Notes under the pieces: generated by a model
Seen by the model: the letters and a program-made list of their open reading frames with translations, nothing else
Databases searched by the model: none
What the model was told of the DNA's origin: nothing
From: a virus
Lineage: Duplodnaviria; Heunggongvirae; Uroviricota; Caudoviricetes
DNA: 7,023 nucleotides
IMG/VR virus record: IMGVR_UViG_2695420687_000004
Coordinates: 1 to 7,023 of that record
Direction: 5' to 3' (one strand)
Made by a program: the position numbers and the translations under genes
Part shown: in pieces, positions 1 to 7,023 of the stretch
Position numbering within the stretch: the stretch's first letter is position 1
Layout of the letters: each line of letters begins with the position of its first letter

Positions 1-312
1 GGCGAGCAAACTGCAGCAGATAATCCGCGACCATATCGGAGCAAAGCACTGCCGCCCCGCTGACGCCAAATCAAGTTTTGCCTGGTCAGCGATGGCATCC
101 AGCGAACGGGCCAGCGTGCCGGACTCACCCGCTTTACCGCTGGCAGTCAGCACATCAGTGATCAGCACGGGTTTATTAAGAGGAAACATTTTTGCATCGG
201 CATCATCGCCCGTGCAGACCATGCCCACGATGGCGGTGCTCACCGTGGTAATGGATCGGGTGCCTTCGTTGATTTCAACAACGCGCACCCCGTGGTGGTA
301 ATCCTGAGCCAT
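1..312 (-). CDS. FI: tail sheath protein (P2 FI-like), N-terminal 104 codons; gene continues beyond the left window edge
   Basis: ATG at 312..310 with SD AGGAGG 9 nt upstream on the minus strand (complement of 322..327). Translation [54 protein letters not shown]... matches my recollection of P2-family contractile sheath N-termini and the expected position after G and the Z/fun slot. No stop before position 1. Not in the ORF track because it is open-ended. The last ~25 codons (plus 1..75) look atypical (see findings). Confidence 0.6.
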
Positions 313-1487: not shown

Positions 1488-1712
1488 ATGCAAAACAAAT
1501 ACAGTCCATCTATGAATACGTTCTTTATGGCTGAATTTATGCGTCGTTACGAACAAGCTGGTACATTGCCTGATGATGCAATAGAGATACCCGATGAAGT
1601 ATTTAAAGAATACACAGGGGAACCACCGGACGGAATGATGAGGGTTGCGGGTAGTGATGGTCTACCCGCATGGGCAGAAATTATTTACACTCAGGAACCA
1701 TCGGCCAGATGA
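1488..1712 (+). CDS. truncated paralogue of the tail-fibre assembly chaperone (G'/Tfa', 74 aa), partner of the H'v cassette; possibly a pseudogene
   Basis: SD GGGAG 8 nt upstream of ATG 1488, 4 bp after the H'v stop. The product (..YSPSMNTFF..YEQAGTLPDD..GEPPDGMMRVAGSDGLPAWAEI..) aligns with the N-terminal half of G (..FSPAENAFY..YLTAGTWPSD..GEAPEGKVRSIGDDGLPCWVDL..) but stops where G continues for ~75 more residues. Its 3' end overlaps the 3' end of G convergently (1681..1712). Confidence 0.5.
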   Translation: MQNKYSPSMNTFFMAEFMRRYEQAGTLPDDAIEIPDEVFKEYTGEPPDGMMRVAGSDGLPAWAEIIYTQEPSAR

Positions 1713-2118
1713 TATCAGGAGCACTGGAGGTATCAATCAGTTCCAGTGCGTCCAGATAATCCAGCCACAGATTATATTGCGCCAGTTCCTCACCTTTCAG
1801 ACGCCCGATTGCTGCTTTGCCGGGCCACTGCTTGCTATTCATATAATCGTTGGCCTGGTCAATTCTCGACTGCTTTTCTGAGTCAGCCACTGCAAGTTGT
1901 TCTTCATGCGTAGGTGGCGGAAGATCTACCCAGCAAGGCAACCCATCATCACCAATGCTCCGCACTTTACCTTCGGGAGCTTCTCCCATGAAAACCAGCG
2001 CATCGGCAGCATTTATATTGATGCCGTCTGACGGCCATGTGCCAGCAGTTAAATAATCATCTTGTAGTGCTACAAGATAAAAAGCATTTTCAGCCGGGCT
2101 GAATACATAGTCGACCAT
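1681..2118 (-). CDS. G: tail fibre assembly chaperone (P2 gpG / Tfa family), 145 aa
   Basis: ATG 2118..2116 overlaps the H stop (TAATG). N-terminus MVDYVFSPAENAFY and C-terminal ..APDIIWPMVPECK resemble the Tfa-family N-terminal YFS..N.FY and C-terminal DIEWP..P motifs (recollection). The ORF-track start at 2136 is an alternative 6-codon-longer start. Confidence 0.8.
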   Translation of the reverse strand: MVDYVFSPAENAFYLVALQDDYLTAGTWPSDGININAADALVFMGEAPEGKVRSIGDDGLPCWVDLPPPTHEEQLAVADSEKQSRIDQANDYMNSKQWPGKAAIGRLKGEELAQYNLWLDYLDALELIDTSSAPDIIWPMVPECK

Positions 2119-3521
2119 TAATATCCCACTCCCCATACTGCCACTGTTGAATTAGATTTCGTATATGCGCAAGCGGCTTTGAATTTGACCCGGTCAACAA
2201 TCGCTGCGCTAACAAAAGGAGCTCCATTAGTCGCGTAGATCACAGAATTGACCAGCGAAGGATTGATGGAAAGGCAAGCATTAGGAAAGGCAACCGGCCA
2301 TGAGTCATCAACAACGACCATATTACCGTCGGTAGATTGCGGCACTGATACCATCTTCCACTGAAGCAGTGCTGTTCGTTGTACTCCACCAATTAATACT
2401 GGAATAGTGATGTTACCTGCACTGCTGGCCAATGCTGTTGCAGCAGGCATTTTTGCCGCTTCTCCCAAACCAAGGTATGTGAGAAGACCAGCTACATCCT
2501 TTCCACTCAAATTAGTCAGCGTATTGTCCAGCGGTTGTTTACCTGCCAGTGCATTAAGCATTGTCGTGGCAAAGTTCGGGTCATTCCCCAGCGCCGCCGC
2601 CAGTTCGTTCAGTGTATCCAGTGCCGCAGGTGCAGAACCCACCATTGCCGCAATCGCCGATTTCACAAAAGCCGTAGTGGCAATCTGTGTATTGTTGACC
2701 GACTGCGCCGCCGTGGGGGCTGTTGGCGTTCCGGTGAGTGCCGGACTCGACAGTGGCGCTTTCAGTGCCAGCGCATTGTTAATGGTGGTACTGAATTTCG
2801 GATCATTGTTAATGGCTACGGCTATTTCTTTCAGCGTGTCCAGCGTGGCTGGAGCACCATTAATAAGAGCCGTCAGTGCCGCCTGAACAAACGCGGTGGT
2901 CGCAACCTGCGTGGTGTTATTCCCCGCCGCTGGCGTTGGCGCTTTGGGGGTTCCGGTAAACGTCGGACTTTCTTTGGGTGCATACTGTGAATGCGGGTCC
3001 GGTGCGGCAAGATGTTTTGCCATCAGGTCATCCACGTACACCTTCAGCTCCAGTGCCTTGTCATCCACATACTTGCGGGTTGCCAGCACTACGGCAGGGT
3101 CGATTTTCAGTGTGATATTGTCCGTGCTGCTGGTAATCAACACCATACGCACGGTCTGGGTACGCCCGCTGCCTTCAGCCAGTTGCGGCTTATAGCTTTC
3201 CGGGCAGTTGCCCACGGCAATCAATGCCCCGGACTCATCAAACAGGCCCACTTCACGTATCCACCAACCGCCCTCGTTTTCAGGGATCACCTGTTCAGCA
3301 ATAATCTGGCTGCTGTTCTGCGGGTCGATATAGAGCATATTCAGCGCAGCCCGGCGTTTCTCATTTACTAATGCTGTCTGCTTTGCGTTCGGCGTTGGCA
3401 ATGTTCCGCCGCCATCGCCGACCGCCATATGGGTAATTTTTAAAGGCACACCGAGCGCGGCGGCGCTGGCAAGTTTCTCCGCGCCAATATCCGTCAGCAG
3501 GGTATAAAATTTTGTGCTCAT
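2118..3521 (-). CDS. H: tail fibre protein (P2 gpH-like), 467 aa; constant N-terminal 350 residues plus invertible C-terminal receptor-binding tip
   Basis: ATG 3521..3519 overlaps the I stop (ATGA); SD-like GAGAG 7 nt upstream. N-terminus MSTKFYTLL..GAEKLA..MAVGDGGG..YKPQLAEGSGR and collar repeats (..NNTQIATTAFV.., ..LDTLNELAAALGNDPNFATTMLNALAGKQPL) are characteristic of P2 H / Mu S-type fibres as I recall them. The crossover core falls between codons 350 and 351. Confidence 0.9.
   Translation of the reverse strand: MSTKFYTLLTDIGAEKLASAAALGVPLKITHMAVGDGGGTLPTPNAKQTALVNEKRRAALNMLYIDPQNSSQIIAEQVIPENEGGWWIREVGLFDESGALIAVGNCPESYKPQLAEGSGRTQTVRMVLITSSTDNITLKIDPAVVLATRKYVDDKALELKVYVDDLMAKHLAAPDPHSQYAPKESPTFTGTPKAPTPAAGNNTTQVATTAFVQAALTALINGAPATLDTLKEIAVAINNDPKFSTTINNALALKAPLSSPALTGTPTAPTAAQSVNNTQIATTAFVKSAIAAMVGSAPAALDTLNELAAALGNDPNFATTMLNALAGKQPLDNTLTNLSGKDVAGLLTYLGLGEAAKMPAATALASSAGNITIPVLIGGVQRTALLQWKMVSVPQSTDGNMVVVDDSWPVAFPNACLSINPSLVNSVIYATNGAPFVSAAIVDRVKFKAACAYTKSNSTVAVWGVGY
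2460..2485. other. inversion crossover site, right (hix/gix/cix/pix-like), inside the tail-fibre gene
   Basis: TTCTCCCAAACC-AA-GGTATGTGAGAA on the plus strand; the two half-sites are 10/12 dyad-symmetric. The inner half-site is identical to the inner half-site of the left site in inverted orientation, with the same 2-bp core. Confidence 0.75.
2529..2960 (-). repeat. diverged tandem duplication (two ~215-bp units) inside the constant part of the fibre gene
   Basis: H residues ~188-257 (TFTGTPKAPTPAAGNNTTQVATTAFVQAALTALINGAPATLDTLKEIAVAINNDPKFSTTINNALALKAPL) and ~261-331 (ALTGTPTAPTAAQSVNNTQIATTAFVKSAIAAMVGSAPAALDTLNELAAALGNDPNFATTMLNALAGKQPL) are about 60% identical. The DNA units are visibly similar, for example ttcagtgtatccagtgccgcaggtgcag vs ttcagcgtgtccagcgtggctggagcac. 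Coordinates approximate. Confidence 0.6.
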
Positions 3522-5024: not shown

Positions 5025-5370
5025 TCTCTGCTCCTGTTGATACGGAAAGGGAAACAGGCACACCGTTATTACGCCGCCCGGTCAGCGCCACCACCATTGA
5101 ACCGTCAAAATGGCTGTTGATGGTGATGGAATCCAGCGTCAGCCGTGGCTCCCAGCGACTCAGCGCCACATACACTGCCGACATGACCTGCAGGCGTAAC
5201 GCCGGATTTTGTGGCTGGTCTATCAGTGCCGACAGCAGGGAACCATATTCACGGCGAGCAATGCGGCTACCCTGCGGCGTCAGCAGAATGTCCCGCACCG
5301 ACTGGCGCAGATGGTCAATATCAGTAATGGCTTTACCGCTGGTATTGTTCATCCCGCTATAAAGCGTCAT
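5011..5370 (-). CDS. W: baseplate wedge protein (P2 gpW / GPW-gp25 family), 119 aa
   Basis: ATG 5370..5368 overlaps the V stop (ATGA); SD GGAGG with 6-nt spacer. Size and position between V and J fit gpW. Confidence 0.85.
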   Translation of the reverse strand: MTLYSGMNNTSGKAITDIDHLRQSVRDILLTPQGSRIARREYGSLLSALIDQPQNPALRLQVMSAVYVALSRWEPRLTLDSITINSHFDGSMVVALTGRRNNGVPVSLSVSTGAENGSD

Positions 5371-5945
5371 ACCGGGCCTCCAGTTGTGTCGCCGCCTTTC
5401 AGGACGCCAGTATGCTGATGCGCATCAACCTCGATCCCGTTAGAACTCATCGCTCCGCCGCCCTGGGTAACGCCACCATTGATCACCACTTCGCTGTTAA
5501 TGCGCGTGCGGTCAGCCTCCAGTACAAACTCACTGGTTTTCATGGTGATGTTGTCAGCGGCCTCAATGACCATTGATTTGATGCCCCTGACATACCAGCG
5601 CCCGGTGGCGGGTTCGTATTCAAACCAGCTACCGTCAGGATGTTCTGTCACGCAGGCGTCCGCCGACGTCGACGGTGGTGCGAACTGATTCGAATAGACA
5701 GCGGGCAGCGCAAAGGCGGTCTCCAGATTGCCGCCCAGACTCAGCAGCACCACCTGCTCACCTTCCGATGGTTTCCACCATGTCCGGGCATTACCCGCGC
5801 GCAGCGTCAGCCAGTTAATCCAGTTGGTTTCAAGGTCGCCCGTTTTCACCCGGCAAAGCCAGTTTTCCCGGTCCACTTCGGTGACTACACCTATGCGGAT
5901 CAGATTGGTGATAAGGCGCATGATTTCGGTTAGTTGTGCGTTCAT
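5367..5945 (-). CDS. V: baseplate spike / assembly protein (P2 gpV-like), 192 aa from ATG 5945 (alternative start 5921)
   Basis: MNAQLTEIMRLITNLIRIGVVTEVDRENWLCRVKTGD...TWWKPSEGEQVV..LGGNLETAFALP.. with a Gly-rich C-terminus, typical of gpV-type spike proteins. The start is chosen at the sharp composition boundary near 5946; neither 5945 nor 5921 has a clear SD. The ORF-track extension to 6188 runs antisense through the AT-rich island and the 5' end of the membrane-protein gene and is rejected. Confidence 0.8.
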   Translation of the reverse strand: MNAQLTEIMRLITNLIRIGVVTEVDRENWLCRVKTGDLETNWINWLTLRAGNARTWWKPSEGEQVVLLSLGGNLETAFALPAVYSNQFAPPSTSADACVTEHPDGSWFEYEPATGRWYVRGIKSMVIEAADNITMKTSEFVLEADRTRINSEVVINGGVTQGGGAMSSNGIEVDAHQHTGVLKGGDTTGGPV

Positions 5946-5991
5946 AGATATATGATGACAGCTGAAAACTTGTTTATAACTTCTTGCAAAT

Positions 5992-6009
5992 TGTGGTATC
6001 GATGGTACA
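5992..6009 (-). promoter_or_regulatory. possible late-promoter activator dyad (TGT-N12-ACA) for the V-W-J-I-H-G operon
   Basis: TGTGGTATCGATGGTACA at 5992..6009, in the intergenic region upstream of V. It is centred only ~55 bp from the 5945 start codon, so it fits well only if the transcript starts very close to the ATG or if V starts at 5921. The motif is expected by chance about once or twice per 7 kb. Confidence 0.25.
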
Positions 6010-6048
6010 AATTGATAAAAGGATAAAAAACAACCAATAGGTGGATAA

Positions 6049-6855
6049 ATGAGTGTTATGAATCCAATAAGTTCTAATATATTTAATGCTGAATTTTTAA
6101 ACACCCCGGCAGCGGCACTTGCCGCATGGATTTCCATTATTGGAGCTGTTATAACTTTGGTGACGATAGTTATAAGAGCACTATTCAAATATAGAAAATC
6201 TCATGATGTAATTTTGAAAAAATCAGGAATACCTGCGTTTATATTAAATTTTTTTCTTATACGAATATCATTAAAAAGGCTGCCTACTATCACATGGGCT
6301 GAAAAATCAATCACGGTTCTCTTTTCACTTCTTTTTTTGTATGCAATTTATATTTTTGGTCCAGTTTTCATCCAAGCCATTAGAACCCCACCAAATAGCA
6401 CATTGCTTTATTGGATAAAGTCCGGTGAATCATTTTATATGTCAAAAAAACTGGCGACTGCAGCTACAATATTAACCACTCCTGATTGGGAAATATCAAA
6501 GGATGATTGCGAAGAGTCATCCTCTGCCAGTACAGAGAAGTACAAATCATTAACTATCGAACATAAAGAAATTCTTTGTAAACTACTAACCACTGATGAA
6601 GGGAATGCTTACATTGATGAAGAAGTCAAGAATTTCGTTAAAGACAAATTCTTTATCTATTCCTTTGCCCCAACAACCATATTTATTCTATTATGGATTT
6701 CTTTGGGTTTTATACTGACCATTCACTATTCTAAAAAAGTTAGGAAATATATTCTGACTGAACAAAAAAATGCAATTCATTGGGCATATGGTGAATTCAA
6801 GACAGAAGGAATCTATTCAATATATCAAGAGTTAGAACGTAAGACTCACCATTAA
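6049..6855 (+). CDS. hypothetical multi-pass membrane protein (268 aa) encoded by an AT-rich moron; function unknown
   Basis: ATG 6049 preceded by AGGTGG (6039..6044, 4-nt spacer); possible sigma70-like elements TTGCAA (5984..5989) and TACAAA (6006..6011). Clearly lower GC than the flanking structural genes (by eye, roughly 30% vs 55%). Hydrophobic segments at about residues 21-45, 60-74, 87-110 and 199-224, with positively charged loops (KYRKSH, KKVRK) and an acidic soluble region at ~115-198 (..[34 protein letters not shown]..). It is the only long ORF in the island and lies opposite to the late operon. Confidence 0.75.
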
Positions 6856-7023
6856 GACCCAACAAACGACGCTCTGCGTAACGCACTTCCGCCACGAAGG
6901 AAGACTCCAGCACGCCAGCACGATGACCGCCAGTTGCGGCCGCCCACGCTTTAGCGATCGCCATTCCTTCGCCTTTCGGATCGTTTTCCGGGTGAACGGC
7001 AATCAGCGTCGGTACACCGAATC
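6797..7023 (-). CDS. 3' end of a phage late gene in the P2 gene-S position (probable tail completion / virion morphogenesis protein); gene starts beyond the right window edge
   Basis: Open minus-strand frame entering at 7021 (..[56 protein letters not shown]..), GC-rich like the other structural genes, stopping at TGA 6799..6797 inside the AT-rich island. Identity is inferred from synteny only; I do not recognise the sequence. Confidence 0.4.

Follow-up and report, generated by a model that had tools for sequence, protein, structure and literature searches.

The window analyzed here is the entire 7,023-bp draft contig CDRK01000234.1 of assembly GCA_000936005.1, as identified through a match to an identical tail-fibre protein; a literature search for the assembly accession did not find it. 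The listing of open reading frames (ORFs) places a P2-type late block on the minus strand, with an invertase gene followed by G, H, I, J, W, and V. Beyond V, the GC content changes from ~0.55 in the flanks to ~0.33 in an AT-rich island (local range about 0.31–0.36) that carries a cargo gene for a DUF6216-family membrane protein on the plus strand, and the phage gene S converges with its 3' end on this gene from the far side. An Rfam scan of the whole window returned no match. The features to which the text refers are the following.

1–74: piece from the interior of bioF, abutting the truncated tail-sheath gene FI
75–311, minus strand: truncated tail-sheath gene FI, with phage homology beginning at 75
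1049–1483 and 1488–1712, plus strand, and 1681–2136, minus strand: alternative tail-fibre C-terminal/assembly ORFs
2118–3521, minus strand: tail-fibre gene H, from the ORF listing
5367–5945, minus strand: baseplate spike gene V, 192 aa, at the head of the V-W-J-I-H-G late operon
5948–6866: variable S–V cassette, with the V-promoter region, the DUF6216 gene, and its own last ~23 S codons
5992–6009, minus strand: TGT-N12-ACA dyad inside the AT-rich cassette, a predicted Ogr-type late activator site for the V-operon promoter
6049–6855, plus strand: DUF6216-family cargo gene, 268 aa, from its PF19723 match and RefSeq name
6797–6855, both strands: convergent overlap of 59 bp, with the final 19 codons and stop of the DUF6216 gene (plus strand) facing the final 18 codons and stop of S (minus strand)
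6797–6891, minus strand: 3' fragment of the P2-type tail-completion gene S, codons R121–S148 and stop plus the shared E119–V120, from megablast and homologues
6884–6891: S/ilvC junction, an 8-bp microhomology (CACTTCCG) with an in-frame fusion at Glu-Val
6892–7023, minus strand: internal fragment of ilvC (ketol-acid reductoisomerase, residues about 169–212), running to the contig end

In RefSeq and in all relatives, V begins with the ATG at 5945, and a 273-aa TTG-initiated ORF (5367–6188) was ruled out as the real V; the 81 codons by which that ORF lengthens V, into the island and over the start of the cargo gene, are an ORF-calling artefact. At the other end of the late block, the invertase gene adjoins the alternative tail-fibre C-terminal/assembly ORFs in the region 455–2136, and positions 1089–1513 of the window recur with 100% identity, in reversed orientation, in another genome (locus L009). 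The region 455–2136 is consistent with a Gin/Cin-type invertible host-range segment of a P2-type prophage.

A first-pass annotation, made from the letters of the window, had described a minus-strand gene in the S position that ends inside the island, with its stop codon at 6799–6797 and a 59-bp overlap with the plus-strand membrane gene. Checking the ORFs and their translations, we find the stop codon as claimed and the overlap at 6797–6855, with the cargo TAA at 6853–6855; the convergent arrangement with overlapping 3' ends is annotated likewise in RefSeq. At both RefSeq loci that we inspected, RM10466 and BL21(DE3), the identical 59-bp overlap is annotated between a “DUF6216 family protein” and a “phage virion morphogenesis protein” (S, 148 aa). 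In addition, megablast recovers V, the DUF6216 gene, and S as one contiguous stretch, at 99.4–99.9% identity, in 111 complete E. coli genomes, BL21 and REL606 among them. By our own arithmetic, an open run of 19 codons has a chance of ~0.2 in DNA of 33% GC, so the ORF alone is not significant and it is the comparative evidence that makes the overlap real. The overlap is real and conserved, and it is already annotated in many E. coli genomes. The composition boundary had been judged to lie at ~6856, and a fine-scale shift in composition is indeed found near 6854, but the edge of the variable DNA is at ~6866/6867, ~10 bp deeper into S. The V–DUF6216–S stretch is also present on two separate ~55-kb E. 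coli records (NZ_CP148585.1 and NZ_CP148400.1) that are not chromosomes and that could each be an excised or plasmid-like P2-type element, or else an assembly fragment.

The cargo protein matches PF19723 over residues 73–237 at 44.6 bits, passing the gathering score of 27.3, and its hydropathy profile displays three segments that are strongly hydrophobic, with perhaps a weaker fourth. Homologues of 262–268 aa, with identities of 50–100%, occur in Escherichia, Salmonella, Citrobacter, Klebsiella, and Serratia. The best-conserved stretch among them is the C-terminal YILTEQKxAIHxxxGEFKxEGIYxIYQELER, which includes the overlapped residues 250–264. Its tail, GEFKxEGIYxIYQELER, is kept in all homologues across this range of identities, and Gly248, Glu249, Phe250, Gly254, Tyr256, Tyr259, Glu261, and Leu262 are invariant down to 50% identity. 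The protein has no match in PHROGs or NCBIfam, PADLOC gives no defence-model match at E ≤ 1, whether for the DUF6216 protein, for P2 Orf30, or for the cargo of the Escherichia phage Cartapus, and a literature search on DUF6216 found nothing relevant. Among 50,697 deposited phage genomes, neither megablast with the island nor tblastn with the cargo protein detected a DUF6216 homologue, with the V gene alone giving matches; that no deposited phage genome encodes such a homologue counts to some extent against the reading favored here, in which an S protein with a DUF6216-type tail may support plaque-forming phage.

Intact orphan DUF6216 genes of 263–268 aa adjoin ybjL at loci L030, L033, L034, and L036, and at loci L028 and L029 an orphan lies near rpoD and a UDG-family (mug-like) gene. 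Around the orphan genes, the prophage has shrunk to S and V fragments of 28–110 codons. The survival of the orphans suggests a benefit to the host, with the cargo gene kept by host selection once the phage itself has degenerated; functional tests of DUF6216 would accordingly be reasonable.

The edges of the cassette were placed by aligning an island-bearing sibling that is 99.94% identical to the window (L017) with a comparator that has the same tail-fibre protein and lacks the island (L018, BBWB01000006.1), in which V lies 68 bp past S. Homology between the two breaks at the V start codon (window 5947/5948) and at S nucleotide 377/378 (window ~6866/6867), and the sequence between these breakpoints measures about 900 bp in the island form versus 115 bp in the island-less form. 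As had been proposed, the last S codons are encoded by island DNA: the tail of 19 residues specified there differs from the island-less VNDDVEAMTRDMILQWLAG, and alignment of S with island-less homologues gives distinct rather than identical tails. The accompanying suggestion that an insertion had replaced or extended the native C terminus survives in its first part, in that the C terminus is replaced by a variant, but not in its second, as S is 148 aa long both with and without the island.

A survey of the 120 closest S cluster representatives, all at least 78% identical, places this tail within the range of the family. In 106 of the 120, 18–21 residues follow the LLG motif, with a mode of 19 that is the length of the island type, and the S C terminus is colinear with the family model with ~19 residues following LLG. 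The tails belong to dozens of sequence types with the shared pattern T/V-x-D-[ILV]-L-x-x-W/F/Y-L, and the DUF6216-linked LTLDI type accounts for 19 of the 120. The last ~19 residues of gpS are thus hypervariable, with the remainder showing at least 78% identity across the sampled close homologues. A few S variants have lost the stop codon and continue into antisense sequence of the cargo gene, giving tails of 27 and 38 residues. A search of PDB sequences with S returned no match. Judged from these alignments, the S tail is a same-length variant that conforms to the family, not an extension, and the right boundary of the S–V variable region lies inside S as a rule. Cassettes would then be swapped by recombination within S, just past the LLG motif, and at the start of V, instead of being inserted into S, and the homologous, AT-rich 3' end of S would travel with the cassette. 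An AT-rich S tail would thereby be a normal feature of P2-type S–V cargo islands and no sign of gene damage.

The overlap is kept from 100% down to 50% cargo identity, in Escherichia, Citrobacter, Klebsiella, and Serratia. The overlap with S is 59 bp in a metagenome phage with a 50% identical cargo protein; in Serratia the overlap is 47 bp, because the cargo gene is four codons shorter; and a Klebsiella aerogenes remnant keeps the overlap even with S as a pseudogene. The last 15–19 cargo codons would be read opposite the last S codons, leaving the stretch constrained by both frames. In a codon alignment of nine related cargo genes, third-codon positions are invariant in five of the seven amino-acid-invariant columns that fall in the overlap, as against 11 of 60 elsewhere (Fisher p = 0.007). 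Because the third positions of cargo codons are the second positions of S codons, this excess is what dual coding predicts, and with seven overlap columns it is supportive only. A modest biological point is that 47–59 bp of apparently dual-coding sequence, kept across genera, belong both to a cargo gene and to an essential tail gene.

The upstream part of the minus-strand frame has another origin. The whole upstream ORF had previously been taken as a late gene that stays open across the composition boundary, a view that overlooked its ilvC part and that our comparison does not bear out. Positions 6884–7023 are identical at 140 of 140 nucleotides to ilvC of E. albertii NBRC 107761 (IlvC residues 169–214) and 92.9% identical to E. 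coli ilvC. All megablast matches to island-bearing prophages end exactly at 6891, and the S codons uniquely present in the contig are 121–148 only, a stub of 28 codons. The 74-aa minus-strand frame, open from the contig end as far as the stop at 6799–6797, matches KARI_N alone (PF07991, 26 bits against a cutoff of 20.6) and gives no whole-protein match to PF05069 or TIGR01635 above the curated cutoffs, whereas the full-length S of sibling loci reaches 129 bits for PF05069 and 113.5 bits for TIGR01635; the window therefore holds a fragment of S and not an S gene. Gene R, expected upstream of S in the O late operon, is missing from the window, where ilvC and then the contig end follow upstream of codon 119. 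In each of nine other contigs that encode the identical tail-fibre protein, S is intact at 148 aa, with R directly upstream in eight of the nine. At the left end of the window, bases 1–72 are 90% identical to E. coli bioF, and the public record of the contig reads N at positions 69, 70, 73, and 74, at the bioF/FI junction, where the window has A.

Two accounts of these contig ends can be weighed. The ilvC/S and bioF/FI junctions could be real, illegitimate recombination at microhomology having fused a 6.8-kb prophage remnant with host genes; the right-hand junction does have 8 bp of microhomology and is in frame, and decayed P2-type remnants with odd deletions are common. Both ends, however, are internal pieces of unrelated core biosynthetic genes, and the stubs (132–140 bp of ilvC and 72–74 bp of bioF) are each shorter than a typical sequencing read, with the contig stopping right after them. 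The left-hand junction coincides with the Ns in the public record, and none of 185,579 species-representative genomes contains the 28-mer that crosses the S/ilvC junction. A search for fusions with the 74-aa frame returned only IlvC or S fragments of at most 130 aa, from a candidate set that is seemingly limited by length. A real rearrangement would, moreover, require biotin and Ile/Val auxotrophy, and would bring bioF and ilvC within 7 kb of one another. We consider such a rearrangement unlikely. Because the window is a whole draft contig that ends in core-gene stubs below read length, both ends look chimeric, and this circumstantial evidence makes it very likely that both junctions are assembly artefacts. 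The real genome probably carries an intact S, and no biological meaning should be read into the “late gene” of the contig, an ilvC–S chimera that sits at its end.

A different question is whether the S tail and the overlap could be products of an insertion or of annotation. Were a foreign AT-rich island inserted in the 3' end of S, the native C terminus would have been destroyed and a novel or extended tail supplied by unrelated DNA. The composition of the island-type tail (GC of 0.36 versus 0.58 in the S body) fits that model, as do the ~5 of 18 residues that it has in common with the island-less tail; so does the TIGR01635 local alignment, which halts at residue 132 in the E. coli-type tail and counts to that extent against the explanation we prefer. 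The halt is confined to that type, with TIGR01635 aligning through the tail in the Serratia and metagenome variants (two of the three DUF6216-linked ones), P2, Cartapus, and the island-less form, and PF05069 aligns residues 3–146 of S to model positions 2–147 of 148 for both tail types. Divergence opens within the RRLLG codons, where the first divergent codons still encode R-L-L-G (CGT TTG TTG GGT versus CGC CTT CTG GGT); these differences are synonymous, which marks the divergent stretch as a homologous 3' part of S, as opposed to unrelated DNA of the island. The island tail retains the family pattern as T-x-D-I-L-x-x-aromatic-L, which is present in dozens of tails, S has the same length in both forms, and a different cassette, that of Cartapus, brings its own S tail with no overlap. 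Direct and inverted repeats flanking the island are limited to short chance matches, and a target-site duplication was not found. We regard an insertion into S, as originally envisaged, as largely refuted and very unlikely. It is also highly improbable that the overlap is an annotation by-product, with the cargo protein ending earlier, its last 19 codons being untranslated read-through, and S alone mattering in 6797–6855. The Pfam DUF6216 alignment does end at residue 237 of 268 (model position 265 of 270), and some homologues end four codons earlier, at 264 aa. None of the cargo homologues has a stop before residue 262, however, the conserved GEFK-to-ELER tail is the best-conserved part of the protein, and this tail is kept even in orphan copies next to which S is reduced to a fragment. 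Taken as a whole, the evidence makes it likely that the contig is the FI'-to-'S part of a P2-type (Peduoviridae) prophage from an Escherichia albertii-like host, with an exchangeable S–V cassette and chimeric ends.

The region between V and the cargo gene has a regulatory anatomy that resembles that of P2. The sequence TGT-N12-ACA has two matches in the whole window, at 389–406 upstream of FI and at 5992–6009 upstream of V, the positions expected for the late promoters PF and PV of P2. The center of the second dyad lies 55.5 nt upstream of the first base of V, equal to the activator-to-V spacing annotated in P2, and from this P2-like spacing the V-operon late promoter is predicted to sit inside the AT-rich cassette. 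The dyad is part of a 103-bp spacer between V and the cargo gene that is highly conserved across cassettes. A candidate cargo promoter, TTGCAA-16 nt-(TGg)TACAAA, was recognized by eye on the cargo strand at 5984–6011 and overlaps the right half of the dyad, although it fails the consensus criteria of the scanning tool; the Shine–Dalgarno sequence of the cargo gene, AGGTGG, is at 6039–6044. At orphan loci without V, the candidate promoter is conserved whereas the left half of the dyad decays.

Between S and V, neither a consensus scan nor an RNAfold hairpin scan detected a terminator-like hairpin on either strand; the consensus tool misses the annotated terminator of P2, whereas the RNAfold scan recovers the −22 kcal/mol bidirectional hairpin of that phage. 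Because no terminator was found between the genes, antisense coupling of cargo and late transcription is plausible. In an intact prophage, the cargo gene may be expressed during lysogeny from the promoter-like sequence in the 103-bp spacer, with its transcripts running antisense into S. Unterminated O-operon late transcripts that pass S would in turn run antisense through the whole cargo gene and not just through the 59 bp of the overlap, and an activator bound at the overlapping dyad would cover the cargo promoter as well. The cargo gene would then be strongly expressed in lysogeny and shut down during late transcription.

A more speculative idea, which we hold to be doubtful, is that the overlap with its dual coding acts, together with the V promoter inside the cassette, as a selected anti-deletion device of the moron and is no accident. 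If so, a simple deletion of the cargo would kill the phage, with the cassette locked to the end of S and to the V-operon promoter, and the cargo could be exchanged only for a cassette with its own S tail and V promoter. Such a device would explain why hypervariable S tails are found beside an S body that varies so little among close homologues.

The P2-like phages have three variable loci with horizontally acquired genes, TO, Z/fun, and orf30 (PMC3091744), and a further example of a variable locus between S and V has been described (PMC6823313). The window has the features of that locus, namely a non-structural gene between S and V that is oriented opposite to the late genes and is of atypical composition. 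The cargo cassette would thus be horizontally exchanged in the slot that orf30 occupies in P2. As in the S–orf30–V region of P2, the cargo gene here is AT-rich and convergent with S, encodes a protein of similar length (268 aa, compared with 261 aa in P2), and has an Ogr-type activator site for the V promoter between its start and V, at identical spacing. P2 Orf30 is nonetheless unrelated in sequence to the window protein (BLASTP E = 0.63); it has no Pfam match and is assigned to phrog_2407 at 2.9e-148, the PHROG search with the window protein having been negative. The two arrangements also differ at the 3' ends of the genes, since in P2 a gap of 71 bp, with a strong bidirectional hairpin terminator in it, separates S from orf30, in contrast to the 59-bp overlap without a hairpin described here.

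Similarities extend to the morons of lambdoid and P2-type phages, in that an AT-rich non-structural gene with an apparent promoter of its own is set against conserved late genes and is retained intact in decayed prophages. Classical morons, however, consist of a promoter, a gene, and a terminator and are intergenic, whereas the cargo gene of the window has no recognizable terminator and shares its 3' end with an essential gene. Convergent gene pairs subject to antisense or transcriptional interference include the face-to-face switch promoters of coliphage 186 and the excludons of Listeria. The DUF6216–S pair is like these in having genes on opposite strands with 3' transcript overlap, one expected to be lysogenic and the other lytic, and unlike them in that the overlap is at the coding 3' ends and not between promoters. 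The nearest parallel in cassette structure is Cartapus, in which a different cargo (phrog_18838) occupies the same slot in the same orientation with a cassette-specific AT-rich S tail (GC of 0.24), although there the cargo gene ends 5 bp before the S stop codon without overlapping it and S is 150 aa. The arrangement in the window is one that is already annotated in public genomes, and it lies in a known variable locus.
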